NCBI GenBank assembly: GCA_048886685.1
Contig: JBHLKM010000010.1
Span: 1 to 23,845 of the forward strand
Origin: Candidatus Hodarchaeota archaeon
GTDB taxonomy: Archaea > Asgardarchaeota > Lokiarchaeia > Sigyniarchaeales > SOKP01
DNA: 23,845 nt
Reading direction: 5' to 3'
Shown: positions 2,754 to 22,538 of the stretch, one piece after another
How positions within the stretch are numbered: the first letter of the stretch is position 1
Layout of the letters: each line of letters begins with the position of its first letter
Translations under genes and position numbers: made by a program
The notes under the pieces: generated by a model
The model's database searches: none
The model's input: only the letters and a program-made list of their open reading frames with translations
Told to the model about the DNA's origin: nothing

Positions 2754-4373
2754 TTAAGATTTAATTTTCTTCCTTAGTTTTATGACTGTAAGAATAATAG
2801 GCATAGCAGTAAATAATAGAAATAGATTTCCAAAAGGAATTGCAGCCTCTCCACCGTCTTGAATTTCTTGAATTTCTCCTATTTGAATGCGGATATAATC
2901 TGAGGGTGTATCTCCATCTTCACTGTGAGCTACAGCAATAAAGTACCTATATCCATTAATTTGACTCATATTAACCGCAAAAGGTATTGTGGCATTTTTG
3001 TATGCCAAACATATTAAATCTTCACTTAGTCCTGAAATAGTATTTTCAGAGTAGTATATTGAAAAATTGTTAGCTTCAACAGATTCGGACCAAATAAGGT
3101 CAAAAAGACCATCATCGTCATAATTCGGTGGGTGATATTTGCCATCTAATTCTGACCAATGGGGGAAAAGAATTCCCTCATTATCAACATTAGAAGTTAA
3201 TGCAAATTCAGTTTTGTTATCATTATGTTTATCAAAAAAATTCAACGCATTGTGAATATCTTTACTATAAAATGTATGATATCCACCAGAAATCAAGATA
3301 CTACTTGTTATTGTTGAGTTCCTAAAACTATAGTTTTCAGGTATTGCTTCATAAATGGGATCAGTAGAAGTAATGTTAGGATATATATAGCCAAATTCGT
3401 CAATAATATGAGCATCCCTAAGAGCATCGTATATTTCACTAGAATTTTCGTACGAAATATCATTGATATAACTAAATTGTTTTGGATGAACAGGAGTAGG
3501 TTGATTCATGTATAATTCTGCAAATGCTCCATTTGAAATGTAATATAGATAATTATTCCACGCAGAAGGATTTATATTTGGGAAATGATCATTTACCGCT
3601 AGATTCCAGTATGTTGGAATTAAATAATTTTGCATAAGGAAGCTAATCCCCCCAGCACAAAAAATTGCTTGCGCAGAGAAATTGAAAAATATTGATGCAC
3701 GGCTTATGAAAGCACCTCCATTAGACAGACCTAATCCGAACAATGGACAATTACTTCTAATTATTCCTCGATTTGTAAAATTTAATAATATATAATTTAT
3801 ATTTTGTATATCAGTGTTATTTTCTAGAATACTATTTGGGTCCCATTGTGCTTCTTCATCACGATCAAGACTTTCAAAAGCAATAAACCCATATTCTCGC
3901 AGGACTATACGATTCATGAAATTAAAAGTTTCAGTTCTATTTTCACTTACCCAGTTTACTGAGCTTCCTCCTCTTCCATGAAATATAAAAACAATTCCTT
4001 TATAATTGGAAGGTAGATAATAATAAACTTCTGTTCCATTAAATATTTCAAAACTAACATTTGTTTTAATATCCCACTTACTAAGGCAAGGTTTATATGT
4101 TGCATTAATTTGAGAAGAGGTTTTAGGAGGTTCCATCCTTGTGTGGAAAGAATTTATATCATCTATTAGATCATTATCACCAACCCATTGATCAAAAATC
4201 ATCCCCTCTGGTGGAGGATTCGCCCAAATATCGACCATTCCATTTGATAGAAGGTTATCATTGTAGAACCCTTCATTTATCTCTAAATTTGGTATAGCAG
4301 CACGGATTTGTGGTATAAGAAAACAACTAAATATTAATAGTATTAAAGCCAGTACTTTTTTTATGAATTTCAT
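2754..4373 (-). CDS. Secreted, membrane-anchored alpha/beta-hydrolase (esterase-like) with Loki-CTERM-like tail
   Basis: 539 aa. Signal peptide MKFIKKVLALILLIFSCFLIP, oxyanion motif FHGRGG, nucleophile elbow GLSNGG, candidate Asp (AVNDH) and His (GGYHTF). C-terminus is IPFG, a hydrophobic helix, then KLRKKIK. Confidence 0.7.
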   Translation of the reverse strand: MKFIKKVLALILLIFSCFLIPQIRAAIPNLEINEGFYNDNLLSNGMVDIWANPPPEGMIFDQWVGDNDLIDDINSFHTRMEPPKTSSQINATYKPCLSKWDIKTNVSFEIFNGTEVYYYLPSNYKGIVFIFHGRGGSSVNWVSENRTETFNFMNRIVLREYGFIAFESLDRDEEAQWDPNSILENNTDIQNINYILLNFTNRGIIRSNCPLFGLGLSNGGAFISRASIFFNFSAQAIFCAGGISFLMQNYLIPTYWNLAVNDHFPNINPSAWNNYLYYISNGAFAELYMNQPTPVHPKQFSYINDISYENSSEIYDALRDAHIIDEFGYIYPNITSTDPIYEAIPENYSFRNSTITSSILISGGYHTFYSKDIHNALNFFDKHNDNKTEFALTSNVDNEGILFPHWSELDGKYHPPNYDDDGLFDLIWSESVEANNFSIYYSENTISGLSEDLICLAYKNATIPFAVNMSQINGYRYFIAVAHSEDGDTPSDYIRIQIGEIQEIQDGGEAAIPFGNLFLLFTAMPIILTVIKLRKKIKS

Positions 4374-4623: not shown

Positions 4624-6075
4624 ATGTCAGAAAAACCTAATATAATCTATATTTTTTCTGATCAACACCGCGGTGATACATTGGGGTGTGTTGGTCATCC
4701 TGCAGTACTTACCCCTAACTTAGATAAATTAGCATCTGAGGGAGTTAACTTTACCAGATGTTACACGAATTCCCCTGTTTGCATGCCTGCAAGAGCCTCC
4801 ATGATGACGGGTCAGTATGTTTGTGAACATGGAATCTGGACTAATAATAATGAGGCAGATCCCCTAGGCCCAAGTCATGTCAGAAACATTCGGGATGCGG
4901 GATATCATACCGCTGTTATTGGCAAAACTCATCTTTATCTTCATGGGGCAGGTTGGAAAGATACTAGAAACAATATTGATATCTTGAAAAATTGGGGTTT
5001 TGAAGACATCCATGAATTAACAGGACCTTTAGCAACTTTCAGACATGATTGTTCTTATACTGATTACCTCAAAGAAAAGGGATTATTGAAGACCCATAGA
5101 GATTACCTTATGAATCATGGGATACCCTCAGCTAGAGGGACTGCAAAGCCCTGGGATGATCCGCCTAGCCCTCTACCCACTGAAGCACATTTAGATAGCT
5201 ATACTGGACGCACTGCGATGGAATGGATTCAAAATTATAATGGTGATAAACCATTTTACTTACAAGTTCTATTTCCCGGGCCTCATAATCCCTTTGATTC
5301 TCCTCAAGAATATAGAGATATGTACAAACCTGAAGAAATGCCAATAGGAATAATGGATTGGCCAGAAAGACCTATAGCTAGATATGTGAGAGGAGTATTG
5401 CGTTGGAGTGGGCTTAAAGGTATGACTCCCATACAAAAACAAACTTTGCAAACCTATTATTATGCTAAGATTACCTTGATTGATGATTACATTGGAAGGA
5501 TAGTAAAAGTACTAGAAGAAAAGGGATTATTTGATAATACATGGATAATCTATAATTCAGATCATGGAGAAATGCTGGGAGATCATATGATGAGCCATAA
5601 GGTAGTTTTTTATGAAGGAGCAATACGTGTTCCTCTAATTATAAGACCACCAGGCCATGTTCAAGGTTGGCAGTGTAAAGGATTGACAGATCATCTAGAT
5701 ATAACAGCATCTCTGATAGATATTGCACAGGCTGAAACCCTTCCTGGAAGTGATGGTCGGTCACTTGTTCCTCAAGTTTTAAGTGGTCCTGATGATATTG
5801 AAGCCCAAAAAGGAAAAGAAGCAATATTTAGTGAGGTTTATGGCTTTAGCATGGTTTTTAATGGAAGATATAAAATGGCTATTAATCCTATAACTCGGGA
5901 ACCGGTTGAATTGTACGATCTTAAAGAAGATCCCAATGAGTTAAAAAATATTGTGAATGTCGCTGCCTATGAATCTGTACGTCAAGAATTATTAGATGAC
6001 CACTTGGAGAAATTACTTAGTCGTCTAGATCATGAAAAATTTGAGAATATCAATTATGGTAGATTGATTGAATAA
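4624..6075 (+). CDS. Sulfatase-like hydrolase, Cys-type (paralogue A)
   Basis: 483 aa. Motifs FSDQHRGD, VCMPARASMMTG (CxPxR), GKTH, PHNP, SDHGEMLGDH and ELYDLKEDPNE. No signal peptide. Confidence 0.92.
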   Translation: MSEKPNIIYIFSDQHRGDTLGCVGHPAVLTPNLDKLASEGVNFTRCYTNSPVCMPARASMMTGQYVCEHGIWTNNNEADPLGPSHVRNIRDAGYHTAVIGKTHLYLHGAGWKDTRNNIDILKNWGFEDIHELTGPLATFRHDCSYTDYLKEKGLLKTHRDYLMNHGIPSARGTAKPWDDPPSPLPTEAHLDSYTGRTAMEWIQNYNGDKPFYLQVLFPGPHNPFDSPQEYRDMYKPEEMPIGIMDWPERPIARYVRGVLRWSGLKGMTPIQKQTLQTYYYAKITLIDDYIGRIVKVLEEKGLFDNTWIIYNSDHGEMLGDHMMSHKVVFYEGAIRVPLIIRPPGHVQGWQCKGLTDHLDITASLIDIAQAETLPGSDGRSLVPQVLSGPDDIEAQKGKEAIFSEVYGFSMVFNGRYKMAINPITREPVELYDLKEDPNELKNIVNVAAYESVRQELLDDHLEKLLSRLDHEKFENINYGRLIE

Positions 6076-7442: not shown

Positions 7443-8198
7443 TGGCCAGAAGAACCTACATCTATATATGTTAAGATGGTTCTACGATGGAGTGGTCTCT
7501 ATGACATGACACCCGAACAGAAACAAATGTTAAGTACTTATTACTATGCCAAGATCACATTGATTGACGACTATATTGGAAGGATATTGAACGTATTAGA
7601 AGAAAAGGGCTTATTAGATAATACATGGATAATCTATAATTCTGATCATGGAGAAATGCTTGGAGATCATATGATGAGCCATAAAATAGTATTTTATGAT
7701 GGACCTGTACGTATACCTCTTATTATAAGACCACCAGGTGGTGCTAAAGGTTGGCAGTGTAAAGGATTAACAGATCATCTCGATATAGCCGCATCTCTTA
7801 TAGACATTGCACAGGCTGAAACGTTATCTGGGAGTGATGGTCGCTCACTTATCCCTCAAGTTCTAAATGGACCTAATAACCCAGAAGCGCAAAAAGGAAA
7901 AGAAGTCATCTTTAGTGAAGTTTACGGTTATAGTATGGTTTTTGATGGAAGATATAAAATGGCAATTAATCCTATAACTCGAACACCAGTTGAATTTTAT
8001 GATCTTAAAGAAGACCCTGATGAATTAAAAAATCTTGTAGATGACTATGCTTATGAATCTATTCGTAAAGAATTACTCCATAAACATTTTGGTAGGCTGC
8101 TTAAACATTTAGACAAAAAAAAATTTGAAAATATGAATGTTGGTAGTCGTAGACGACAAATCGAAAAAGAACTTGAAAAGGAACAAGAAGTAACTTAA
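7443..8198 (+). pseudogene. 5'-truncated sulfatase (paralogue B), C-terminal half only
   Basis: Homology to A and C starts at WPEEPTSIYVK (7443), upstream of the ATG at 7476. In-frame TAA at 7425. About 250 N-terminal residues, including CxPxR, are missing. The remaining frame is uninterrupted. Confidence 0.85.
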
Positions 8199-8445: not shown

Positions 8446-9948
8446 ATGGCAGAACAACCTAATATTATTTATATTTTTTCTGATCAACACCGTGGAGATA
8501 CTTTGGGGAGTGTTGGTCATCCTGCAGTAATTACTCCTAATTTAGATAAATTAGCGTCTGAAGGAGTTAACTTTACCAGATGTTATACGAATTCCCCTCT
8601 TTGTATGCCCGCAAGAGCTTCCATGATGACAGGTCAGTATGTTTGTGAACATGGAATCTGGACCAATAACAATGAGGCAGATCCCTTGGAGTGCCCAAGT
8701 CACGTACGCAATATTCGCGATGCTGGTTATCACACGGCTGTTATCGGAAAAACACATCTTTACCGTCATGGAGGGAGAACATTAACGTGGAAAGATACAA
8801 GAGAAAAGACTCAAGTGTTAAAAGATTGGGGTTTTGAAGACATCCATGAATTGACAGGACCTCTTGCAACGCGTAGGCATGATTCCCCATATACTGATTA
8901 TCTCAAAGAAAGGGGATTATTGAAAATTCATAGAGATTACATCTTCAAATATGCAAGGGAATGGACAAGAGGGACAGCAAAACCCTGGGAAGAACCTCCA
9001 TGTCCGCTTCCTGCTGAGGATCATCTTGATAGTTATACAGGACGTAAAACAGTTGAATGGATTCAAAATTATAATGGTAATAAACCATTTTATTTACAAG
9101 TCTTATTTCCAGGACCTCACGATCCCTTTGACTCACCTCAGGAATATAGAGATATGTATAACCCAGAAAAGATGCCTATTGGAATTATGGATTGGCCACA
9201 AAAACCCGTAGCTCGCTATGTGAGAATGGTGTTGCATTGGAGTGGACTTAAAGGTATGACTCCTGCTCAAAAACAAATCCTAAGAACTTATTACTACGCC
9301 AAAATCACATTGATTGATGAATATATCGGCAGAATCATGAAGACCCTTGAAGAGAAAGGTCTATTGGAAAATACGTGGGTAATCTATAATTCTGATCATG
9401 GCGAGATGCTGGGAGACCATATGATGAGCCATAAGATTGTATTTTATGAAGGAGCCTTACGCATTCCTTTAATTATTAGACCGCCTGGTGGAATGAAGGG
9501 GTGGAAGTGTGAGGATTTAACCGATCATCTTGATATTGCTGCTACCTTGATAGATATTGCAGGAGCTAAGCCACTTAAAGGGAGTGATGGAATTTCTCTA
9601 GTCCCAAAAGTATTAAAGGGACCAAATGATTCTGAAGCCCAAAAAGTAAAAGAAGTCATCTTTAGTGAAGTTTATGGTTTTTCAATGGTCCGGAACGAAC
9701 AGTATAAGATGGCTATTGTTCCAGATACCCAAAGACCAGTTGAATTATATGACTTAGAAAAAGACCCAAATGAATTAATAAATCTAGTAAGAGATCCCAG
9801 CCTTGAATCAGTCCGTCAGGAATTATTAAATAATCATCTAAGTAAACTGCTTGATCATTTAGATATGAAAAAGTTAAAAAATATGAATGTTGACGGTCTT
9901 AGTCGGCAAATAGAAAAAGAAATTGAGAAAGAACAAAAAGTAATTTAA
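8446..9948 (+). CDS. Sulfatase-like hydrolase, Cys-type (paralogue C)
   Basis: 500 aa. Motifs SDQHRGD, LCMPARASMMTG, GKTH, PHDP and SDHGEMLGDH. Confidence 0.92.
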   Translation: MAEQPNIIYIFSDQHRGDTLGSVGHPAVITPNLDKLASEGVNFTRCYTNSPLCMPARASMMTGQYVCEHGIWTNNNEADPLECPSHVRNIRDAGYHTAVIGKTHLYRHGGRTLTWKDTREKTQVLKDWGFEDIHELTGPLATRRHDSPYTDYLKERGLLKIHRDYIFKYAREWTRGTAKPWEEPPCPLPAEDHLDSYTGRKTVEWIQNYNGNKPFYLQVLFPGPHDPFDSPQEYRDMYNPEKMPIGIMDWPQKPVARYVRMVLHWSGLKGMTPAQKQILRTYYYAKITLIDEYIGRIMKTLEEKGLLENTWVIYNSDHGEMLGDHMMSHKIVFYEGALRIPLIIRPPGGMKGWKCEDLTDHLDIAATLIDIAGAKPLKGSDGISLVPKVLKGPNDSEAQKVKEVIFSEVYGFSMVRNEQYKMAIVPDTQRPVELYDLEKDPNELINLVRDPSLESVRQELLNNHLSKLLDHLDMKKLKNMNVDGLSRQIEKEIEKEQKVI

Positions 9949-10734: not shown

Positions 10735-12108
10735 TTATAATCTTAGATCTAATCGAGGTTCACGGAGTTCTGGAGATAAATTATAGTCATACATAAATTT
10801 TACAAAATGTTGGTGAAGCTCTTTAGCAATTTCTGGATGTTCATCAATCACGTTATTTTCCTGCTTTGGATCAGATGGAATATGATATAACCAGGTTAAT
10901 CCTGGTTCTGTACTGTAAAGTAGAGTCCACTCATCTGTGGTTACTGTGGTATCTGACCCCATCAGGGCAATTCTTTCCCTTCCATCAACTGATCGAATCT
11001 TAGTTTTCAAGTTCATAATAGGATGTGTACTGATTGTGTGGTCTCTTACTCTAAAGTTCGTATCTTTCATCATTGGCAAAATTGATTTACCTTCTACGCT
11101 CTCCGGTATGCGTTCATCTAGAATATCCAGTATAGTCGGCATCAGATCAACTGCTGAAGTAATTCCATCGGAAATACTTGGTTCCACTCCCGGCATATAG
11201 ATAAAAAGTGGACAGGCTGTAAGCTCTTCAAAGAGTGGAGATCGGGTCCAAGCCCGTTTTGGTGAACCAATGGGTTCATCTGTGTAGGGAATCGAACTAG
11301 GATAAGCCCTAGTTAGCTTTCCGAACAAACCGTTGTGTTCACCGAAATAGAAACCATGATCTGTGGTAAAAATGATAGTTGTCTTATCCATGAGGTTCAT
11401 ATTCTCGACTCTTTTGATAAAGTGACCAATCCAGGCGTCTACCATTGTACACTCACCACAGTAACATGCATGTGCTTTTTTCACTTTTTCCTCAGTCATT
11501 CCAGGGACATCTTGCCAGTGCGCATAGACAGGATTGACTTCCTCACCATCATAATCTGGCCAGTATAGTTCCGTGTAATAATCAGGGGCATCCCAGGGTT
11601 CGTGGGGATCCCATGCATCTATATACAAAAAAAAGTCTTCTTTATAGTGTAACTCAAGCCACTCCATCGCCTTGGAGAATGTCTTCGGTGCAAATCTGTC
11701 TTCCTCAAAACGCCAAGATTTACGCTCATCTCCGAGCGTACGATAACCGTACAACTGTCCCGGTATCTCCATCCAACCTTGAAAGCCTCTGTCATAGCCA
11801 AAACCAAATCTTGTATAAAATGGTGTATCTACAACCGCAGCTGTTGTATAACCTTTGTTAGTAAGTATTTGTGGTAAACTTACTAGATTTCTTGCTAGTG
11901 GTTCCCATCTCATAAAACAGGCAGTCCAGCGACCAGTAAAAAAATCTGCTCGGGCGGGCATAGTTGGGAAACCCGCAGCGTAATGACGATTAAACTGCAC
12001 AGATTTTTTAGCCAGAGAATCCAGAGCTGGTGTACAGATGGATTTATTACCGTAACAACCCAGATGGTCTTTTCGAAAGGTGTCAGATATTATCCAAATA
12101 ACGTTCAT
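10735..12108 (-). CDS. Sulfatase-fold (alkaline phosphatase superfamily) hydrolase with Thr at the catalytic position (TxPxR)
   Basis: 457 aa. Motifs ISDTFRKDHLGCYG, FPTMPARADFFTGR, WDPHEPWD and TTDHGFYFGEH. AGGAGAAGG lies upstream of the ATG. Confidence 0.85.
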   Translation of the reverse strand: MNVIWIISDTFRKDHLGCYGNKSICTPALDSLAKKSVQFNRHYAAGFPTMPARADFFTGRWTACFMRWEPLARNLVSLPQILTNKGYTTAAVVDTPFYTRFGFGYDRGFQGWMEIPGQLYGYRTLGDERKSWRFEEDRFAPKTFSKAMEWLELHYKEDFFLYIDAWDPHEPWDAPDYYTELYWPDYDGEEVNPVYAHWQDVPGMTEEKVKKAHACYCGECTMVDAWIGHFIKRVENMNLMDKTTIIFTTDHGFYFGEHNGLFGKLTRAYPSSIPYTDEPIGSPKRAWTRSPLFEELTACPLFIYMPGVEPSISDGITSAVDLMPTILDILDERIPESVEGKSILPMMKDTNFRVRDHTISTHPIMNLKTKIRSVDGRERIALMGSDTTVTTDEWTLLYSTEPGLTWLYHIPSDPKQENNVIDEHPEIAKELHQHFVKFMYDYNLSPELREPRLDLRL

Positions 12109-12168
12109 TTTCCTTCTCCTATTTATGTATCAATATTTATATTTATAAAATTGAGGGAGTATGTATAC

Positions 12169-12996
12169 CTAAGCTTCGCTACCACCATCAACAACAATGA
12201 CTTGACCAGTGATATAACTTGATGCGTCTGATGCAAGAAAGAGAGCTACATTAGCAATTTCATCTGGCTCAGCAAATCTTCCTAGTGGAATATGGTAGCC
12301 TATTTTTTTCATCAGTTCAGGATTTTCCCATAGAAATCGGATCATTTCCGTTCTTATCCCTCCTGGCGCTATGGCATTAACCCGGATACCATACTGACCC
12401 AATCCCCAAGCCATGCCACGCGTTAACATATTAACCCCTGCTTTGGATATAAAATAAACCCTAGAAGCGAAAGGATGTACCTCTGGTCGTAATGGAAGAG
12501 GATCTTGGAATAATGACCTTCTAATACCCGGTCTAATCCTCAAGCTATCAATCGAAGATATATTAATTATATTGCCCGATTTTCTTTCAATCATTCCCTT
12601 AGCTGCCGCATGGGAACATAGATAACAGCTCTTCAAATTAATATTCATTTGTTTATCCCACTGTCGCTCTGGCGGTTCGTCAGCAAAAGCTCCAGCCCAT
12701 ACAGCAGCATTATTTACCAGAATGTCAATTCGACCAAATTCTTTCTCTACTTTTTGAACAAGAGAATTTACTTGGTCTTTTTGACTAACGTCAGTCTGAT
12801 TAAAGAGAGAACGCCTACCAAGTTTCCTGATCTTTTCAGCCACCCCATCCAACTCCCCTGTATCAACGATCCAATCACATATGGCAACGTCAGCTCCAGC
12901 TTCAGCAAATGTTAATGCTGTGGCTTCACCCACACCTCGTCTTGAACCAGTAACTAGAGCCACTTTACCTTCTAATGACATTGTAATTACTCGCAT
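12169..12996 (-). CDS. Short-chain dehydrogenase/reductase (classical SDR, probably NAD-preferring)
   Basis: 275 aa. TGSRRGVG, Asp after beta2 (AICD), NNAA, YFISK (YxxxK), RVNAIAPG and YITGQVIVVDGG. The start may instead be Met6 (12981). Confidence 0.92.
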   Translation of the reverse strand: MRVITMSLEGKVALVTGSRRGVGEATALTFAEAGADVAICDWIVDTGELDGVAEKIRKLGRRSLFNQTDVSQKDQVNSLVQKVEKEFGRIDILVNNAAVWAGAFADEPPERQWDKQMNINLKSCYLCSHAAAKGMIERKSGNIINISSIDSLRIRPGIRRSLFQDPLPLRPEVHPFASRVYFISKAGVNMLTRGMAWGLGQYGIRVNAIAPGGIRTEMIRFLWENPELMKKIGYHIPLGRFAEPDEIANVALFLASDASSYITGQVIVVDGGSEA

Positions 12997-13156: not shown

Positions 13157-14596
13157 TTATAATTTAATCTCTTCAAATTTTCTCTGATATAGTTTACTCA
13201 TTAAAGAATTTAGGTGTTTTCTTAGTAATTCCTTACGAATACTTTCTAACAATGGATCTTTCACTAAATTAACTAATTCATCTGGATCTTTTTCGAGGTC
13301 GAATAATTCTACTGGTTTTCCTGAGTTACTTTTAATTGTCATCTTATATCGTTCATCACGCACCATTGAGAATCTATATACTTCACTAAAAACAGCATCT
13401 TTTGCCTTTTGAGCCTTAGGGTCATTTGGTCCCTTCAATATTTTTGATACAAGAGAAACTCCATCACTTCCTTTAAGTGGCTTAGCTCCCGCAATATCTA
13501 TTAAGGTAACAGCAATATCAAGATGATCGGTTAAACCCTCACACTTCCACCCCTTCATTCCGCCAGATGGCCTAATAATTAAAGGAATACATAATGCTCC
13601 TTCATAAAATACTATCTTATGTCTCATCATATGGTCTCCCAGCATCTCGCCATGATCAGAATTATAAATTACCCACGTATTTTCTAATAGACCTTTTTCT
13701 TCGAGAGCTTTCATGATTCTCCCTATGTATTCATCAATTAAAGTGATTTTCCCGTAATAATTAATCCTCATTTGCTTACATTGCTCAGGAGTCATATCTT
13801 GAATAGCACTCCAATTTTGTACCATCCTTACGTACCAGGGAGTTGGCTTTTGAGGAAATTTCATAATACCCTCAGGAATCTCTTCTAATTTGTACATATC
13901 TCTATATTCCTGAGGTGAGTCAAAGGGATCGTGAGGTCCTGGAAATAAGACTTGTAAGTAAAATGGTTTATCATCATTATAATTTTGAATCCATTCAACT
14001 GTTTTACGTCCTGTATAACTATCTAAATGTGCTTCAGTGGGTAGGGGGCTATGCGGATCATCCCAGGGTTTTGCTGTCCCTCTAGCTGAGGGTAAACCAT
14101 GATTCATGATGTAATCTCTATGGATTTTCAATAATCCCTTTTCTTTGAGATAATCAGTATAAGAACAATCATGTCTGAAAGTTGCTAAAGGTCCCGTTAA
14201 TTCGTGGATATCAACAAAACCCCAATTTTTCAAGATATTAATATTGTCTCTAGTATCTTTCCAACCTGCCCCATGACGATAAAGGTGAGTTTTTCCAACC
14301 ACAGCCGTGTGATATCCCGCATCTCGAATATTGCGTACATGACTTGGACACTCTAATGGATTTGCCTCATTATTATTGGTCCAGATTCCATGTTCACAAA
14401 CATACTGTCCAGTCATCATTGATGCCCTCGCAGGCATACAAAGTGGGGAATTAGTATAACATCTGGTAAAGTTAACACCCTCAGACGCTAATTTATCTAA
14501 GTTGGGCGTAATTATTGCAGGATGACCAACACTCCCCAAAGTATCACCACGGTGTTGATCAGAAAAAATATAAATTATATTCGGTTGTTCTGCCAT
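13157..14596 (-). CDS. Sulfatase-like hydrolase, Cys-type (paralogue D)
   Basis: 479 aa. Motifs SDQHRGD, LCMPARASMMTG, GKTH, PHDP and SDHGEMLGDH. Starts 30 bp after the MBL sulfatase stop. Confidence 0.92.
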   Translation of the reverse strand: MAEQPNIIYIFSDQHRGDTLGSVGHPAIITPNLDKLASEGVNFTRCYTNSPLCMPARASMMTGQYVCEHGIWTNNNEANPLECPSHVRNIRDAGYHTAVVGKTHLYRHGAGWKDTRDNINILKNWGFVDIHELTGPLATFRHDCSYTDYLKEKGLLKIHRDYIMNHGLPSARGTAKPWDDPHSPLPTEAHLDSYTGRKTVEWIQNYNDDKPFYLQVLFPGPHDPFDSPQEYRDMYKLEEIPEGIMKFPQKPTPWYVRMVQNWSAIQDMTPEQCKQMRINYYGKITLIDEYIGRIMKALEEKGLLENTWVIYNSDHGEMLGDHMMRHKIVFYEGALCIPLIIRPSGGMKGWKCEGLTDHLDIAVTLIDIAGAKPLKGSDGVSLVSKILKGPNDPKAQKAKDAVFSEVYRFSMVRDERYKMTIKSNSGKPVELFDLEKDPDELVNLVKDPLLESIRKELLRKHLNSLMSKLYQRKFEEIKL

Positions 14597-14626: not shown

Positions 14627-15889
14627 TTAAGAATCATATTTTATTCCCTTTGAGGCAAGAAATTCTTTATCTTTTTTGATATAATAAACCCAAGCATTTC
14701 GAGACATAAGGCAATAATCATGAGAACCCAACTCTTTTAGAAGTTGTATTCTTAATTTTCTAGCTTCTATATGTTTAGGATTTCCCTGAATTAAGACGTC
14801 TAAGACTTGAAGACTGAGTTGTGTCTGACCATTTTTAAAAAGTTCTTTTGCTCTAGTTATAATTTTGTCATTATCACCAATCAAATTAAATATTTCATTA
14901 TTTACCTCTCTTTCTGGTCTTGGCAATAGGTGTGCAGGATTATCATCAAAATAGCCATGATACCATCGATAAACATTGTAGACGAAAAATTCTGGTCTAG
15001 AATAACGTAATTTAAGATAAGGACTATTTTTAAGATGTTCTGGAATTTTTACAGCATGGATCATCTCTGAAATATGCATACCTTGATTAATATATTCTAC
15101 AACTTGATCATGTAGAGAACGGATAACCTCAATATTTGTATCTAAAGCTTTTTTTGCTCTATTTCCTCGAAGCATCATACCGGCACCATTAAAAAATAAA
15201 TAATCTATATTCTTCGATCTGATTTCTTCCAATGTTTTTGCCCAATCTAAAGCAAAACGTGCAGGCTTCCAAGGATTTCCTATATTTGGAAAACTTCCTA
15301 TAAGTAAGTCCCCGATAAACGCCGCATTGAGTTGGGGAACATAAACCCAACAGATATCATCAGTTTCTCCTCGAGCTGTGTGAAGTTCGAAAGATTTATC
15401 TCCAAGAGATATGGTCATTTCACCCAAAAAGGTTTTTGTAGGATATATATAGTTTCCAATATTGACTCTTTCCGGAATATTAAATTGTTGGGCCAAAAAT
15501 CGCGCACGATGACGTGCTAGTGTTTTAAACCTATCCAATCGAGCTGGTAAATATTTATTCGCTATTATTTCTGGATTATCTGCTATAAAAGCTCTTGCAC
15601 CTCCCACGTGATCGTTATGACCATGAGTATATATAATATATTCAATTTTCCCCGCGATTCTTTTAAAAACCTCTTTTCCTATTGCTTCCGAGCCCATAGT
15701 ATCAATTAATACAAGACCATCACCAGTTTCAATCCAAGCACAACCTGAAATAGGGAGAGCCGCAGTATGAACGTCCTTTAGAGGTTCCTTAAAGATAATA
15801 TTATTTTGGTTCCATAAAAGCGGTGTTCCTTTTAATTCTTCACTATTAGGATTTTTTACCTCATTTAATTTTTCTGGCATATTATTCAT
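14627..15889 (-). CDS. Alkyl/aryl sulfatase, metallo-beta-lactamase fold (SdsA1/BDS1-like) with dimerisation domain
   Basis: 420 aa. Motifs LIDT, THGHNDHVGG (HxHxDH), GETDD, GDL, FPNIGNP and YRWYHGYFDDNPAHL. It appears to lack the C-terminal SCP2-like domain of SdsA1. Confidence 0.85.
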   Translation of the reverse strand: MNNMPEKLNEVKNPNSEELKGTPLLWNQNNIIFKEPLKDVHTAALPISGCAWIETGDGLVLIDTMGSEAIGKEVFKRIAGKIEYIIYTHGHNDHVGGARAFIADNPEIIANKYLPARLDRFKTLARHRARFLAQQFNIPERVNIGNYIYPTKTFLGEMTISLGDKSFELHTARGETDDICWVYVPQLNAAFIGDLLIGSFPNIGNPWKPARFALDWAKTLEEIRSKNIDYLFFNGAGMMLRGNRAKKALDTNIEVIRSLHDQVVEYINQGMHISEMIHAVKIPEHLKNSPYLKLRYSRPEFFVYNVYRWYHGYFDDNPAHLLPRPEREVNNEIFNLIGDNDKIITRAKELFKNGQTQLSLQVLDVLIQGNPKHIEARKLRIQLLKELGSHDYCLMSRNAWVYYIKKDKEFLASKGIKYDS

Positions 15890-15992: not shown

Positions 15993-18119
15993 TTAAGTGA
16001 TTTTTCTCCTACGTATTATTACATAAATAACACCGAGCATAGTTAAAGTTGAAAAGAAACCTATAATCGGGATTGGATATCCTGGTATCACCTCTGATGG
16101 ATATTTCCATGTCCAATCTGTATGTTTAATCCAGGCACCACTTCCCCAATAAAGTGTATAAAGTTCCCATTCTTTAGTAAGCCCTATCCCTACCATTTGT
16201 TGAGCGGTAAAAATCATAGGACAGAGAACATTTTGGATATCATACGCTAAATCATCAAAGGCTTCTTGTTTTTTGGTTCCGTTATTAAGATAAGCGTCAT
16301 ATAAGTAACCATTAATTGTATTATTTGTTAAGAAAGGAAAATTTCGCGTCCTGGCTTGTAGTAAAGCCATTAAATCAGCAGTCAAATAATATGACATTAC
16401 ATATGAAATTACACTCACTTCCTGCAGAGGAGCATTAAGACAAAAAGCACTCGCACTTAAGAAAGGAAATTGTCCAGCTTGCATATCAGGCCATATTCCA
16501 TTGGGATGGTGAACGGTGTCAAAATCACATCCAATTTGATGAGCAGCATCTAATACATATCCTAACATCTCCGCAAACCTATCATCATAGTGAAAATCTC
16601 CAGTCCATATTGGATTTGTTTCTCCAATATTTGACCATAGTGCACTTGGACTACTTATATTTAAACCTCTAGCTGAACATTCGGTTGGATATGCAGCAAG
16701 CATTTTAGCTCGTGCCGTTGTGAGATCTGTATCTGGAAGTGGCACACTCGGATTGTAATACTCATTGCTTACTCCCAGTGTACCTCCAGCTCGTACTGCT
16801 CGTCCCCCCAACTCTGTGTTTATATAGGTAGCATAGTCAAACGAGTGTGATAAAGCTTGTCGAATTGGTCGCGGTATCCCATTCGGCATCCCAAAAACAT
16901 CTTTCACTAATCCGAGAGGTCCAGGTATATCAGTATTTAAAACCGCCGGATTTGTCCAATACGCTGACTCATTAATACAATTTAACCAAATAGCAGGTGA
17001 AACTCCAGCGAAATAACCTGTATCTATATATTCATGATTAACTGAATCTACTATTTGATCATAATCAAGAGGCATGGCAGGTATATCCGCCGCAATATCG
17101 ATCTCACCACTCATTAAGGCTAACCGTCTTGCTTCCTCTCCTTCTGCGCCAAGAGGAAAATAGAATATCTTGAATTCATCTACTTCATGAAATCCTAATG
17201 CTTGCATAGCTGTCGCATTCCACCAATCATCATTTTTTATGACGGAACCTCCCCCGAGAGTGACGTCACTGTGTGCAACAAATTTGTAGGGTCCTGTGCC
17301 AATATAATGAGCAACGTCAGTACTGCTAAATCCAGGTATTTCCTCGAATGTATAATTTGTAGCATACGTTTGCATTGAAATCATTCTATGCATATTACCT
17401 GTCCATACATAGCCAAAATAAGCAAACGGTTTTGGATTCCACATATTAAATTCAATCCTTAATTTTAATGGATCGGCGGGATAAGTTATAGTTCTATTTA
17501 TCCATGAAACATATCCATTCATACCCTCTGCTGGTGCAGTATTTGTGTACCCTCCATAGGTTGCTGGTTGTCCTATTGCCCACGACAAGTCCCATTCTGG
17601 TGTAAAATAAGGTGCGTAATCTGCTGCTTTAAACCACACTAAATTCAAATTTTGTGTAGGAGCACCTGAACCAAAGCCCCCATTGATCCATACAGTTCGA
17701 TTAATATTCCATGCCGCAACCGTAGAATTCCACGCCGAACCATCATGAAAAGCAACACCACTCCGTAAAGTGAAATTAATTGCTTTCACACCACCACTAT
17801 GATCAGCATCGGGAGTCCACCATTCGACCGTCCAATCAGTTGCTAGCTCGGGTATAAGTTCATTCCAATCCCCCATCCACCCAGAAGGAACATCAACTAA
17901 TTTTTCTAAACAATTGACATGGTAAAAAGCTCGGATAGCATTCGATTGATAACTCGCAGGATCCCATTTAGTTGGTTGAGTTGCAGCGTAAGCTCCTTTT
18001 ATAATAATATCATCATCTTGACTAGTTTTAGGTGCAGCAATAACTGGGAAAATTGGTATTATTAATGTACTAAATATTAAGATTATGTAGAAATTACGTA
18101 AAATTTTTTTCATTTTCAT
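15993..18119 (-). CDS. ABC transporter substrate-binding protein, family 5 (DppA/OppA-like), with Loki-CTERM-like anchor
   Basis: 708 aa. Signal peptide, WDPA, LIPELATDW, FTLRSGVAFHDGS, IGTGPYKF and IRQALSHSFDY. C-terminus IPGYPIPIIGFFSTLTMLGVIYVIIRRRK. Confidence 0.88.
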   Translation of the reverse strand: MKMKKILRNFYIILIFSTLIIPIFPVIAAPKTSQDDDIIIKGAYAATQPTKWDPASYQSNAIRAFYHVNCLEKLVDVPSGWMGDWNELIPELATDWTVEWWTPDADHSGGVKAINFTLRSGVAFHDGSAWNSTVAAWNINRTVWINGGFGSGAPTQNLNLVWFKAADYAPYFTPEWDLSWAIGQPATYGGYTNTAPAEGMNGYVSWINRTITYPADPLKLRIEFNMWNPKPFAYFGYVWTGNMHRMISMQTYATNYTFEEIPGFSSTDVAHYIGTGPYKFVAHSDVTLGGGSVIKNDDWWNATAMQALGFHEVDEFKIFYFPLGAEGEEARRLALMSGEIDIAADIPAMPLDYDQIVDSVNHEYIDTGYFAGVSPAIWLNCINESAYWTNPAVLNTDIPGPLGLVKDVFGMPNGIPRPIRQALSHSFDYATYINTELGGRAVRAGGTLGVSNEYYNPSVPLPDTDLTTARAKMLAAYPTECSARGLNISSPSALWSNIGETNPIWTGDFHYDDRFAEMLGYVLDAAHQIGCDFDTVHHPNGIWPDMQAGQFPFLSASAFCLNAPLQEVSVISYVMSYYLTADLMALLQARTRNFPFLTNNTINGYLYDAYLNNGTKKQEAFDDLAYDIQNVLCPMIFTAQQMVGIGLTKEWELYTLYWGSGAWIKHTDWTWKYPSEVIPGYPIPIIGFFSTLTMLGVIYVIIRRRKIT

Positions 18120-18179
18120 TTCCCTCGTTAATGAAAATTTGTTATTTTCTTATTTTTTTTTTTGGATAAATCAAATTTT

Positions 18180-18206
18180 TAATCATTAATTTGATTTTAA
18201 TGATTA
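18180..18206. promoter_or_regulatory. Inverted repeat in the divergent SBP/permease intergenic region
   Basis: TAATCATTAA-N7-TTAATGATTA with perfect 10-bp arms. The surrounding DNA is very AT-rich, so chance is possible. Confidence 0.3.
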
Positions 18207-18442
18207 TTGCATATCTATGTTGTATTAATATTTAAACCTTGTTTAAAATTTATTATTAAGTATATAAATAATAAATAATTATAATCAAATCTAAAATTCG
18301 ATCTAATAATAAAAAACCTAAATCGTATTGAGACAATAATGATAATTAATGCTATATGCAAAAATAAAAGTAGATGGTTACGAAAGTTTTATAATAAAAA
18401 TCGACATTAAAGATTATTAAATATCATAACTTGGGGAATAAA

Positions 18443-19519
18443 ATGGCTCGTAAAGCTAAAAATATGGTGTTTTATCTCATTAAAAGAGTCCTTTTTATTT
18501 TTCCAATGTTATTATTAGTCTTGATCGTTACATGGCTTATATCACAAACATTAGTTGATCAGGCTGTTTTGAATAATATGGCGGGTTTAGTAGATCCAAT
18601 TGTTATCCAAGAAGAAAGAAAAAGACTTGGATTGGATAAACCTGTATTATTTAGACTTGCATTGTATCTTGCTAATTTTTTCAGAGGAAATTGGGGTGAA
18701 TCTTATGTCATCGAACAAGGTACGCCCGTATTGGAAATCGTGGCTATAATTCTCCCTAAAACAATTGAATTAGTTATAATTCCAACTGTTATTATCCCAA
18801 TTATAGCTGTTAAATTAGGAATTATTTCCGCAAAAAATAAGAATAAAACTGAAGATAATGTTATTAGAGGAGTTGCCATCCTTGGGCGAGGTCTACCAGT
18901 TTTTTGGTTTGCGATAATACTACAATTATTTATTGGTTTTTCCTTTAGAACATTTACTCAAGGAGAATTTTTTATACCGATTTTGAATGCTAATTCTTTT
19001 GATTATCCTATGGGTTACTATCCCGCTCCTGATGGTGCTTTCAGGACAAATTTTCGCATTATTGATAGTTTTTTATATAATGACCAACAATATCTTTTCG
19101 ACACATTAATTCATTTGGTACTTCCAATGATTTGCATGACCATCGTGTCGCTTGCTGCAGTTACCCGTCAAACAAGATCGAGTATGTTGGAAGTTTTGGA
19201 ACAAGATTATATAAGGACTGCTCGGGCAAAGGGAGTTCAAGAAGATGTGGTTCTCAATAAGCACGCCCTTCGAAATGCAATGATCCCTACAAGTAATTTT
19301 ATCATTGGAGGTGTTTCAAGAAGATTAACTGGTTCTCTTCTCATTGAAACAAGTTTTAATTATACTGGATTTGGATATTGGATGGTTAGATCTATTCAAC
19401 TGGGAGATCTCGCAGTAATAAATGGACTTTTAGTGTTTTCCAGCATAATTATACTTAGCGGCATCCTAATTGCTGATGTTATGTATACTATTATTGATCC
19501 AAGAATAACTTATAAATAA
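18443..19519 (+). CDS. dppB: Peptide/nickel-family ABC transporter permease (DppB/OppB-like)
   Basis: Motifs YLIKR, LGLDKP, GNWGES, LILP-like LVLP, RQTRSSMLEVLEQDYIRTARAKG, KHALRNA and DPRI. ATG 18443 is preferred over TTG 18431 because GGGGA precedes it. Confidence 0.9.
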   Translation: MARKAKNMVFYLIKRVLFIFPMLLLVLIVTWLISQTLVDQAVLNNMAGLVDPIVIQEERKRLGLDKPVLFRLALYLANFFRGNWGESYVIEQGTPVLEIVAIILPKTIELVIIPTVIIPIIAVKLGIISAKNKNKTEDNVIRGVAILGRGLPVFWFAIILQLFIGFSFRTFTQGEFFIPILNANSFDYPMGYYPAPDGAFRTNFRIIDSFLYNDQQYLFDTLIHLVLPMICMTIVSLAAVTRQTRSSMLEVLEQDYIRTARAKGVQEDVVLNKHALRNAMIPTSNFIIGGVSRRLTGSLLIETSFNYTGFGYWMVRSIQLGDLAVINGLLVFSSIIILSGILIADVMYTIIDPRITYK

Positions 19520-19544
19520 AATTACAACAAGGATGTGAAGAATA

Positions 19545-20543
19545 ATAACTCAAATTCCTATTGAAGAATCAAAAAATATTGAACCACGTTCTAAAATTAA
19601 TAATAAAAATTTACTTCGGTGGTTAAAATTTTATCTAATTCCAGGATGGCGTGATAAAGAATTCTACGAAATCGAATATAAAATAGAAATGATCAAAAGT
19701 AAAAGGAGAAAATTCAGAAGACTTCTTACACCACTGACGATTATTGGAATGTTAATGATATTATTTATAATGGTATGTGCAATATATGCTCCTTGGCTTA
19801 CTGAATACCCTTTAGAACAAGTAACTCAACCTACTATTATTCCTGGTGGAGAAAAGTTTGCACCTCCATCACCAGAACATCCTTTAGGTACAACAGAATA
19901 TGCTTATGATCTCCTCGGAAGACTTCTTTGGGGTAGCAGAACAGTACTTACAATGGGATTTTTACCAGTTCTCATTGCTGTAATTGGAGGGACTATTATA
20001 GGGACAATCTCTGCATATTTAGGGGGAATTGTCGATGCAATTATAATGCGAATATGCGATTTAATATTTGCTTTTCCAAATTTACTTCTGGTTATTCTTA
20101 TCATTCCGATGTTTGGTTATAAGCTAATATATATTATGTTGATTTTTGGTCTCCTTGGAATTCCCCAGTATGTCAGATTAATGCGTTCTTCAGTTCTACA
20201 AACTAGACAAAATATGTATGTTGAAGCTGCGTATGCTGGTGGTGCAGATAATTTTAAAGTTATGTTTAAACACATCGTACCGAATGCGATAGCTCCGATA
20301 TTGATCGCATTTTTTGGTTTAATCGGAACTGCAATTTTAGGTTTTTCATCAATTGCATTTCTCGGAATGAGTGAGGAATATAGAATTGCAGACTGGGGAA
20401 CAGATATATTTTACGCTAAAGGACAATTTGATGCTCCTTGGGCGTCCATTTGGCCAGGAATTTTCATCGCAATAGCAGTTTTTGGTTTTATGTTATTAGG
20501 AGATGGCATAAGAGATGCTTTAGATCCTCGTATAAATATATAA
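19545..20543 (+). CDS. dppC: Peptide/nickel-family ABC transporter permease (DppC/OppC-like); probable ATA start upstream of the first usable ATG (19689)
   Basis: Motifs PPSPEHPLGT, YVEAAYAGGA, KHIVPNA and GDGIRDALDPR. The frame is open from 19539. The start position is an inference (see findings). Confidence 0.85.
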   Translation: MTQIPIEESKNIEPRSKINNKNLLRWLKFYLIPGWRDKEFYEIEYKIEMIKSKRRKFRRLLTPLTIIGMLMILFIMVCAIYAPWLTEYPLEQVTQPTIIPGGEKFAPPSPEHPLGTTEYAYDLLGRLLWGSRTVLTMGFLPVLIAVIGGTIIGTISAYLGGIVDAIIMRICDLIFAFPNLLLVILIIPMFGYKLIYIMLIFGLLGIPQYVRLMRSSVLQTRQNMYVEAAYAGGADNFKVMFKHIVPNAIAPILIAFFGLIGTAILGFSSIAFLGMSEEYRIADWGTDIFYAKGQFDAPWASIWPGIFIAIAVFGFMLLGDGIRDALDPRINI

Positions 20544-20557
20544 AAATGTGATATAAA

Positions 20558-22510
20558 ATGTTTTTCACAATGATGCAGAATAATTATGCAGCTAATTACG
20601 GTATGCTTTTAATTGAATCTATCTTTGAGATTATATTTTTAATTTTTATCACTAATTTTTTAAATCGGTTCGCAATTCCAGAAGATAATCAAGAATTTGA
20701 AATCAAAAATAGAAAAATATTACAGGTATCACTTCTAAGTTCTTTAATTTCCTTTGGAATAATTTTTACAATAAGACTAATTTTTGGATTTTATTGGTTA
20801 TTTGATTATGGATTATGGCGTATAGAAATTTTTTTTGCTGGAATGATAAGCATATATTTTCTAATTTTTATCCTTTTTTTGACAAAAATGGTACCTCAAT
20901 TTAAAGAAAATATTTTTTTTCATAAAAGACTTTTCAGAATCTATATAATCTGTATTGGAGTTTCGTGGTTTGTAGGGTTTGTTTTTCTTTCAATTGATTT
21001 ATTGGAAATTCCAATGAATTGGGACCCTATGAATACGCAATATGACGTATTTCTACTCGGATTTATTTGGGCTTTTTTCACAGTTCTATTTGACATTTCT
21101 ATCTTATATTTAGTTAATAACCTAATACCCATTGAAAAAAAGCTCCCAAAATATGTTTTCAGGAAATCATCTAATGTCGCTAGTATTATCGCATTTAGCA
21201 TTTGGTCTATTCAACTTATTATTTTTGAATTATATCTCAAAAGATTATCTGATCTCTCGGTATGGAAGCAAGATATTCGTGTATTATTTCTTTTGGTTAC
21301 AGCTATTTATCTTGTTTCTTTTTTTCTTTTTTTAAAATATAAATACTTACCAGAGAGTGCTCAAAAAAGTGGTGCAAGGTTTCAAGCCGCGCTAAAATTA
21401 TATGAAGAAAAACAATTGAAGGTTAAAACACTGAAAGCAAATAATGTGATTTTAGATGTTCGTGACCTAATAACTTATTTTTATACAGAAGAAGGGATTG
21501 TTCGGGCTTTAGAAGGAGTTTCTTTTAAGATTTATAAAGGTGAGGTGCTTGGCCTTGTAGGTGAAACTGGATGCGGAAAATCGGTTACTGCTTTATCAAT
21601 TCTACAATTAATTCGACCTCCCGGAAGAATTGAGAAAGGAGAGATTTTATTTGAGGATGAAAATTTACTCGAAAAATCTAAGTCTGAAATTTTAAAATAT
21701 CGTGGGAATAAGATTACTATGATTTTTCAAGATCCACTTAATTCCCTAAATCCCGTTTATAAAATAGGAGATCAAATTACTGAAGTCTATCATCTTCATA
21801 AGGAAGATGATTTACTAGTTGAAGCATCAAAACATTCAAATGAAAGTGTATTTAGTATTGCTCGTAAATGGGGTGAAAAACTCTTACATGATGTTGGTAT
21901 CGCAGCTCCTGAAAAAATTTTTGATCAATACCCCCATGAATTAAGCGGAGGTATGCGCCAAAGAGTCCAAATTGCCATGGCACTGGCTTGTGAACCTAGG
22001 CTTCTAATAGCGGATGAACCTACGACCGCATTAGATGTCACTATTCAAAATCAAATACTAAAATTAATGAAGGATCTTAGAGAAATTTACGATACAGCAA
22101 TTCTATTTATAACTCATGACCTTAGAGTAATCTCAAAAATGTGTGATCGTGTTGCTGTTATGTATAGTGGTTTTATAGTTGAATATGGTGATATTCACAA
22201 AATATTCAAAAGTCCATACCATCCCTATACTAGGGGACTTATAACAGCTTTACCTGTAATAGGAACAAAAAAGAGAAGACTACAAACCATTACAGGAATA
22301 GTACCTAATTTAATTTATCCACCTTCAGGATGTCGTTTCCACCCGCGTTGTGAGTACTGTTTCGAACCTTGCGATAAAGAAGTTCCAAATACTATAGAAG
22401 TAGATGAAAATTATTATGTTGCATGTCATCTTTATAACCCTGAATACAAGCATCTCGCTGAGATCGTGGTAAGAAAATCGGAGAGTGAAAATAAATCCCA
22501 AATTAGATAA
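20558..22510 (+). CDS. dppD: Peptide-family ABC ATPase (DppD/OppD-like) fused to an N-terminal ~7-TM domain
   Basis: Walker [10 protein letters not shown]-loop [13 protein letters not shown], Walker B LIADEPT, H-loop ITHD, HPYT and a Cys-rich tail. The first ~260 aa are hydrophobic. Confidence 0.9.
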
Positions 22511-22538
22511 AAAATATTAAGAATAAAGGGTAAACAAT

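Follow-up and report, generated by a model that had tools for sequence, protein, structure and literature searches.

Here we describe a threonine-type sulfatase-fold gene, encoding a protein that we call P0001, on a 23,845-nucleotide stretch of DNA from a Candidatus Hodarchaeota archaeon (positions 1 to 23,845 of contig JBHLKM010000010.1, assembly GCA_048886685.1; hereafter the window). The gene lies on the minus strand at 10735–12108 and places a threonine at the formylglycine position of the sulfatase signature. Its conservation, predicted fold and active-site pattern suggest that P0001 is an active, cytoplasmic, metal-dependent hydrolase of the arylsulfatase/phosphonate monoester hydrolase (AS/PMH) branch, in which formylglycine would be replaced by unmodified threonine; we give this reading a probability of roughly 60%.

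An earlier note on this DNA had read codon 49 of the gene as ACT, giving FP-T-MPAR, and had set it against the C-MPAR or C-SPTR of the neighbouring sulfatases. That reading is correct as written: the ACT codon lies at 11964–11962 within the local residues F-P-T-M-P-A-R, while the paralogues in the window carry C-M-P-A-R (4624–6075, 8446–9948 and 13157–14596) or C-S-P-T-R (354–2621). In pairwise HMMER alignments, T49 matches the formylglycine-precursor cysteine of the solved sulfatases 7an1, 4upl and 4upi.

The threonine is conserved throughout a large family. Among P0001 and its 120 nearest 90%-identity clusters (57–85% identity), 120 of 121 sequences carry threonine and one carries serine. 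HMMER, run exhaustively against 1.84 billion representatives, returned 486 at E ≤ 1e-30, and we followed the residue further in the 111 full-length 50%-identity representatives, among the best 150, that have a residue at position 49 and extend to ~33% identity. Here, 103 of the 111 carry threonine and 8 carry cysteine, three of these 8 being the window's own paralogues, put in for comparison. At the DNA level, 153 of 156 homologous loci, taken from metagenomes and species genomes, also encode threonine, through all four synonymous codons (ACC 97, ACG 32, ACA 15, ACT 9). A 106-sequence family alignment, reaching ~31% identity, shows D9, R12, T49, R53, W68, H169, D250 and G252 to be invariant, and P48, P51, D94, D167, E170, H251 and K264 to be at least 90% conserved. 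By its conservation, this is a deeply rooted, selected active-site pattern, as would be expected of a working active site. The earlier note had proposed tabulating this residue across homologues and had allowed for a private mutation, or for close homologues that all carry cysteine or serine; neither is what the tabulation shows, and sequencing error or private mutation is ruled out by the conservation and the use of four synonymous codons.

Comparative genomics suggests that this threonine functions unmodified. The source genome contains no formylglycine-generating enzyme (FGE) and one anaerobic sulfatase-maturating enzyme (anSME) above the TIGR03942 cut-off, which could serve its ~18 Cys-type sulfatases. 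In a survey of 40 genomes with a Thr-type gene, picked from the best matches, an anSME above cut-off was present in 9, an FGE in 24, and neither in 14. Ten of the 14 maturase-free genomes are labelled as single-chromosome Dehalococcoidia assemblies, and several complete chromosomes in the survey gave no anSME match even at E ≤ 0.001. Strong matches to PF00884 in the ten Dehalococcoidia all read F-P-T-[MV]-P-[TA]-R, bar one in L089 that has no recognisable C/S/T-x-P-x-R motif, and in five of the ten chromosomes the Thr gene is the only PF00884 match. Because a selected enzyme is here the sole sulfatase-fold gene in complete genomes without both known maturases, we regard this as strong comparative evidence that the Thr-type enzyme would work unmodified, with no maturase needed, as the earlier note had proposed.

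The fold of P0001 is that of a sulfatase. Pfam assigns it to Sulfatase (PF00884; E = 1.6e-41, 143 bits) with an additional SGSH_C subdomain, and its AlphaFold2 model is of high confidence (pLDDT 96.1, pTM 0.95). The top Foldseek matches of this model are all S1 sulfatases or formylglycine enzymes of the AS/PMH branch (E = 1e-29 to 1e-24), the best being BT1918_S1_46, the Enterococcus faecium Mn-arylsulfatase EfAS, SpAS1/2, PMHs and choline sulfatase, at ~20% identity and a TM-score of ~0.74; none of the top 50 is a structure of the LtaS/EptA/YejM type, and the nucleotide pyrophosphatase/phosphodiesterase (NPP) type is likewise not among the top matches. No solved structure falls inside the Thr family, the best profile E-value being 1e-65, to ordinary sulfatases. 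We detected no signal peptide and no transmembrane segment in P0001; since the fold begins at residue 2, the protein is predicted to be cytoplasmic.

We mapped the active site of P0001 using published residue roles in EfAS, including those of D311/H312/K324 (PMC12421950), and in AS/PMH enzymes (PMC5488252). The resulting elements, with the gene and its upstream signals, are as follows.

10735–12108, minus strand: Thr-type sulfatase-fold gene (protein P0001), an intact open reading frame of 457 amino acids.

11950–11964, minus strand: T49-M-P-A-R53, the sulfatase C/S-x-P-x-R signature with threonine at the formylglycine position; the R53 codon is at 11952–11950.

12079–12084, minus strand: D9-T10, in which D9 is the first metal ligand and T10 stands in place of the second aspartate of classical sulfatases (glutamine in the PMH/EfAS type), from alignment.

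11818–11829, minus strand: D94-T95-P96-F97, with aspartate at the position of the sulfate-binding lysine (Lys-A) and no histidine at the His-A position, from MAFFT and profile alignments that included the paralogues in the window and four solved sulfatases.

11599–11619, minus strand: the D164-x-W-D167-P-H169-E170 block, in which H169 is the histidine of the sulfatase 'PH' motif (His-B); the family signature is Dx[FW]DPHEP[WF].

11317–11361, minus strand: D250-H251-G...H258...K264, the aspartate and histidine metal ligands (D-H as in the PMH/EfAS type, not D-N) and a conserved lysine (Lys-B), from alignment.

12109–12165, minus strand: upstream region; ahead of the ATG, the sequence shows a GGAG ribosome-binding site as well as an AT-rich, TATA-like element, TTTATAAATA.

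P0001 thus keeps D9, D250 and H251 as metal ligands, together with R53, H169 and K264. Asp94 aligns with Lys-A of 5g2v, 3ed4, 4upl and 4upi in profile alignments, and the His-A region reads D-T-P-F in the subclade of P0001 and D-T-P-H in most of the wider family. The earlier note's description of retained SD, PH and DHG motifs is therefore accurate for D9, H169 and D250-H251 but incomplete, as it passed over the aspartate at Lys-A and the absence of His-A in the P0001 subclade. Its description of an intact frame with a ribosome-binding site agrees with the 457-residue frame and the GGAG-type site upstream. The Thr gene follows the gene for a short-chain dehydrogenase/reductase (SDR) at a distance of 60 bp and is likely to have start signals of its own.

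To place the cysteine and threonine types relative to one another, we built a FastTree phylogeny of 125 sequences, drawn from the top 150 representatives and the paralogues of this genome, with the DD / C-S-P-T-R sulfatases as the root. A long stem carries a superclade of 109 representatives, the node one step below having a support of 0.99. The superclade comprises two Thr clades, one of 79 members that includes P0001 (support 0.95) and one of 23 (1.0), and a clade of seven (0.995) with six Cys types and one nested Thr type. P0001 shows the full set of features of the T-x-P-x-R clade, namely [FY]-P-T-x-P-x-R, D-[TS], an aspartate at Lys-A, Dx[FW]DPHEP[WF] and DHG...K. The D-T at the first metal site, the aspartate at Lys-A and the DPHEP block are common to all three clades, and are therefore older than, or independent of, the exchange between cysteine and threonine, which on this tree appears to have taken place at least twice within the superclade. 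A change from TGY to ACN takes two substitutions, with a route through serine being possible. Position 95 is a histidine in all six Cys-type sisters and in 1 of 102 Thr types, a pattern that would fit the loss of a histidine serving the formylglycine gem-diol.

The Cys-type sister clade (P0193, P0200, P0240, P0242, P0245 and the gene at C1:171242–173020) resembles P0001 in D9-T10, the aspartate at Lys-A, DPHEP, DH and Lys-B, but differs from the Thr clades in keeping the cysteine (formylglycine) and in having a histidine at position 95. Its member in the source genome, the C-I-P-A-R gene at C1:171242–173020 on a contig outside the window, lies directly upstream of, and co-oriented with, the anSME gene at C1:170121–171191. 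The pair (C1:170121–173020) is likely to be a sulfatase–maturase operon and, as such, a natural formylglycine counterpart to the Thr gene. A second sulfatase-fold protein with threonine, also encoded outside the window (C13:122003–123568), reads W-T-V-P-S-H, a T-x-P-x-H motif with histidine for arginine, and is placed in the tree as sister to the whole T-x-P-x-R / Cys superclade.

Comparison with characterised systems shows a mosaic of likenesses. With S1 sulfatases, P0001 shares the PF00884 catalytic domain and the two-subdomain fold, together with the metal ligands, the arginine, His-B and Lys-B (D9, D250, H251, R53, H169, K264). Unlike them, it has threonine in place of Cys/Ser in C/S-x-P/A-x-R, and it lacks the Lys-A/His-A pair (G-K-x-H), with Asp94 and P96/F97 instead; the Thr family also departs, on comparative evidence, from their dependence on FGE or anSME (neither being present in 14 of the 40 genomes). 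From the AS/PMH branch (SpAS1/SpAS2, 4upi/4upl; RlPMH, 2vqr; BcPMH, 2w8s; EfAS, 9koq; BT1918_S1_46, 7oz8), whose two-subdomain fold and D...(nucleophile)-x-P-x-R...PH...DH-G...K layout it shares at a TM-score of ~0.74, P0001 differs by its Thr nucleophile, by Asp94 at Lys-A (lysine in sulfatases, tyrosine in PMHs), by the absence of His-A and by an identity of ~20%. PMHs and EfAS are closest in the metal site, where the fourth ligand is likewise histidine and the second 'DD' residue is not aspartate. P0001 nevertheless fails to fall into the class of the PMHs (RlPMH, BcPMH, PehA), having neither formylglycine nor the tyrosine at Lys-A, and it scores far below the NCBIfam cut-offs for arylsulfatase, PehA (115 bits against 900), choline sulfatase and Mn-arylsulfatase.

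Enzymes of this superfamily that use an unmodified threonine are more distant. LtaS, EptA/MCR-1 and YejM/PbgA have the Pfam Sulfatase domain, as P0001 does, and use an unmodified threonine as nucleophile at a single metal site, a role that T49, at the homologous position, would also play; they are transferases, membrane-anchored and periplasmic or extracellular, with other motifs (of the T-x-N-x-E type) and without the SGSH_C subdomain; P0001 scores 21 bits against the LtaS model (cut-off 970; E = 9e-5) and 20 bits against YejM (cut-off 825; E = 2e-4). NPPs, PafA and phosphonoacetate hydrolase use a Thr alkoxide nucleophile on the same superfamily core for phosphodiester or phosphonate chemistry. 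The corresponding bimetallo family (PF01663; NPP, PafA, PhnA), characterised by six Zn ligands (D, T, D, H plus D, H, H), matches P0001 only in part (27.9 bits, residues 143–253); the position of the third Zn1 ligand, the last histidine, would be Lys264 in P0001, and the motif is T-x-P-x-R, not T-x-P-x-H. Agl30 and Agl31 of Halobacterium salinarum, proposed N-glycan sulfotransferases likened to P0001 by fold only, are archaeal proteins with an alkaline-phosphatase-like core/sulfatase fold, Agl31 being cytoplasmic like P0001, and they set a precedent for a sulfatase-fold protein acting beyond simple sulfate-ester hydrolysis; they belong to an N-glycosylation cluster, in contrast to the catabolic, importer-linked island around the P0001 gene (PMC11980604). 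The SulfAtlas classification accepts only cysteine or serine and excludes Thr-bearing PF00884 proteins as not shown to be sulfatases, and its paper notes Thr-bearing members of the PF00884 seed, discussing only the T-x-N-x-E group. Judged from sequence and model, P0001 is an AS/PMH-fold enzyme with a natural switch from formylglycine to threonine, fitting none of the definitions of S1, PMH, LtaS/EptA or NPP.

Although the gene sits in a sulfatase cluster in the window, as the earlier note had observed, this is not general: few of its homologues have another sulfatase-fold gene nearby (3 of 80 loci in metagenomes and ~8 of 80 in genomes), which makes the sulfatase island a local circumstance. 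The commonest neighbours are instead ABC importers. Among 96 well-flanked loci, 21 have an Opp/Dpp-type importer with a family-5 solute-binding protein (SBP) and 9 a sugar-type importer; an Opp/Dpp system is also present in the window at 15993–23843, and in Anaerolineae-type loci the Thr gene directly follows two permease genes. NCBIfam gave unspecific Opp/Nik/Gsi-like or carbohydrate-SBP matches for these importers, and none for the SBP of the window. SDR, GFO/IDH/MocA, MR/MLE, APH/EcKL-like kinase and methyltransferase genes recur near subsets of homologues. The importer context suggests that the enzyme acts in the cytoplasm on a small molecule taken up from outside, and does not distinguish sulfate from phosphate. 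In seven Dehalococcoidia loci (L022, L025, L033, L035, L040, L041 and L050) a methyltransferase and/or SDR gene and then an APH/EcKL-like kinase gene come after the Thr gene on its strand, possibly as a small operon.

The gene itself looks foreign to its host. A search of 299 further genomes of the phylum, among them 20 from its own genus, gave nothing at E ≤ 1e-60. Its GC content at third codon positions (GC3) is 0.34, the highest in the window (neighbouring genes 0.20–0.29), and the overall GC content of the Thr gene and the adjacent SDR gene, 0.42, tops the window in a genome of 0.31. The closest relatives, up to 70% identical, lie on metagenome contigs of 43–58% GC without sulfatase neighbours, while named genome matches are mostly Dehalococcoidia and Desulfobacterales, then Rubrobacteraceae, Anaerolineae and Armatimonadota; a plasmid search gave a single distant match (29.5% identity). 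Given the lack of a match in these genomes of the phylum, its raised GC3 and the base composition of the contigs that carry its nearest relatives, the simplest reading is that the Thr gene was acquired horizontally from a bacterium and landed in the sulfatase island. The Thr gene and the SDR gene directly upstream of it (together 10735–12996, minus strand) are the two GC-richest genes of the window and may have arrived jointly. In 14 of 80 loci, the Thr gene has an SDR gene nearby; we considered and rejected a conserved SDR partner, as these SDRs are only 30–36% identical to one another, a generic similarity, and the SDR of the window is not orthologous to those beside homologues in other genomes.

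We propose a mechanism in which a divalent metal, bound at a mononuclear site by D9, D250 and H251, would lower the pKa of the T49 hydroxyl. The resulting alkoxide would attack the phosphorus (or sulfur) centre of an anionic ester held by R53, H169 and K264. This would give a Thr-O-phosphoryl (or sulfuryl) enzyme, a covalent intermediate to be resolved by water or an acceptor, rather than by the hemiacetal elimination of formylglycine enzymes. Such a cycle would require neither FGE nor anSME, and the substrate would probably be a small molecule delivered by an ABC importer. As to its chemistry, we lean, tentatively and at slightly less than even odds, towards a phosphodiester or phosphonate-monoester type of substrate over a sulfate ester, because P0001 lacks both Lys-A and His-A, which matter for sulfatase activity, because PMHs belong to the nearest structural class, because Thr nucleophiles elsewhere in the superfamily carry out phosphoryl transfer, and because, to our understanding, a sulfo-Thr intermediate should resist hydrolysis. 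In nine AS/PMH enzymes, an unmodified serine in place of formylglycine costs only ~10-fold in kcat/KM, and the His-A position divides sulfatases (histidine) from PMHs (aspartate or threonine) (PMC5488252).

Several observations weigh against this explanation. The full T-x-P-x-R-x4-T-G-R signature, which in sulfatases is also the maturase recognition motif, is kept, and K264, H169 and R53 suit sulfate binding equally well. The correlation with His95 comes from one small Cys clade and is effectively one event. The location of the window gene among ~10 Cys-type sulfatases and an alkylsulfatase-like metallo-beta-lactamase suits a role on sulfate esters, and the sugar ABC, SDR, GFO/IDH/MocA and MR/MLE neighbours elsewhere also fit the catabolism of sulfated sugars. 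The earlier note had raised the possibility that the family was already characterised as a phosphodiesterase; we found no biochemically characterised member in literature, NCBIfam, structure or Protein Atlas searches, the last returning 'putative arylsulfatase' clusters only, and no published mention of a Thr-type sulfatase or a T-x-P-x-R motif in the literature searched.

These points bear on an alternative that we hold to be unlikely but serious, namely that P0001 is a genuine maturation-independent sulfatase in which Thr49 or a metal-bound water attacks sulfate monoesters, which would free anaerobes from the need for anSME or FGE in cleaving sulfate esters and, in the source genome, complement the Cys-type sulfatases of the island. 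The gene's place within an island of sulfatases, an alkylsulfatase and an ABC importer, the retention of R53, H169, K264 and the entire signature motif, the sugar-catabolism-associated neighbours in other genomes and the presence of the family in genomes without a maturase, in which other sulfatases could not function, would all be explained. Yet an enzyme intermediate of the sulfo-Ser/Thr type has great chemical stability, and human arylsulfatases with serine in place of formylglycine are reportedly trapped as the sulfo-enzyme. P0001 moreover has Asp94 at Lys-A and no His-A, and the link to sulfatase clusters is not conserved across homologues. Arylsulfatase Cys-to-Ser variants keep ~10% of kcat/KM on sulfate esters, whereas any substitution of His-A in SpAS1 strongly damages its sulfatase activity (PMC5488252). 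Distinctly unlikely, in our estimate, is the broader proposal that the whole T-x-P-x-R clade performs formylglycine-free sulfate-ester or sulfuryl-transfer chemistry through a Thr-O-sulfate, having arisen more than once from formylglycine ancestors with loss of the diol-servicing histidine; if true, strict anaerobes and small-genome Dehalococcoidia could desulfate or trans-sulfate imported organosulfates without a maturase.

A group transferase, which would hand a covalently bound Thr-O-sulfuryl or Thr-O-phosphoryl group on to a hydroxyl of an acceptor, in the manner of LtaS/EptA or of the proposal for Agl30/Agl31, seems improbable. To our knowledge, all well-studied PF00884 enzymes with a Thr nucleophile are transferases, a stable covalent intermediate suits transfer, and some homologues adjoin an APH/EcKL-type kinase and a methyltransferase. 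Sulfatase-fold proteins have been shown by genetics and heterologous expression to add sulfate to glycans (PMC11980604). Against this reading, P0001 is soluble and without a membrane domain, unlike LtaS/EptA, and no glycosylation or cell-envelope genes are found around its gene or its homologues. That P0001 is a pseudoenzyme without catalytic activity or a binding protein, or a Cys/Ser sulfatase with a strain-specific lesion or sequencing error, would accord with the inability of threonine to become formylglycine and with ACT being one base from serine codons; given a deeply conserved active-site pattern, with threonine in hundreds of homologues through four synonymous codons, an intact frame, and metal ligands and three substrate-binding residues (near-)invariant over deep divergence, we judge it very unlikely. 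Highly improbable, finally, is that Thr49 is oxidised by an anSME-type radical-SAM (S-adenosylmethionine) enzyme to the 3-oxo form, a methyl ketone whose hydrate would act like formylglycine hydrate. In vitro, conversion of threonyl peptides to ketones by an anSME is reported. P0001 keeps the maturase recognition motif in full, T-M-P-A-R-A-D-F-F-T-G-R, the source genome has one anSME above cut-off, and the SulfAtlas paper states that oxidation of threonine would yield a ketone; however, 31 of the 40 Thr-family genomes have no anSME above cut-off, the histidine that would service the gem-diol is lost in Thr types, and the anSME of the source genome is paired in operon-like fashion with the Cys-type sister gene on another contig.

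The window contains several further genes of note. Between intact sulfatase paralogues, 7476–8198 (plus strand, 240 amino acids) aligns with PF00884 only over the C-terminal portion of the profile (positions 197–300), and with SGSH_C, and is a truncated sulfatase remnant, and 2754–4373 (minus strand, 539 amino acids), between two sulfatase genes, has no Pfam or NCBIfam match. The protein encoded at 14627–15889 (minus strand, 420 amino acids) is alkylsulfatase-like, of the metallo-beta-lactamase fold, with Lactamase_B and Alkyl_sulf_dimr domains and no detected C-terminal SCP2-like domain. In the Opp/Dpp system, the family-5 SBP (15993–18119) is unusually long, at 708 amino acids, and the ATPases at 20558–22510 and 22539–23843 (both plus strand) have long N-terminal extensions, their ABC_tran domains beginning at residues 318 and 144, respectively. 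A further sulfatase gene starts just past the window end on C10; an apparent ABC-ATPase/sulfatase fusion at C10:22527–24800 was discarded, its open reading frame crossing a run of N that marks a scaffold gap.

In databases, Thr-type proteins carry the name 'arylsulfatase', and organosulfate cycling is inferred from the number of sulfatases counted in metagenomes of marine sediment, sponges and the subsurface. Such inferences would be biased if the Thr family is formylglycine-free and possibly does not cleave sulfate esters. The superclade also offers natural matched pairs on one scaffold, cysteine/formylglycine with His95 and threonine without it, which would allow a direct test of how the identity of the nucleophile relates to the preference for phosphoryl or sulfuryl groups in the alkaline-phosphatase superfamily, and a maturation-free enzyme of the sulfatase fold would be easy to express for biotechnology. 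In the source genome, the gene would illustrate how an archaeal sulfatase island can take in an enzyme from bacteria.

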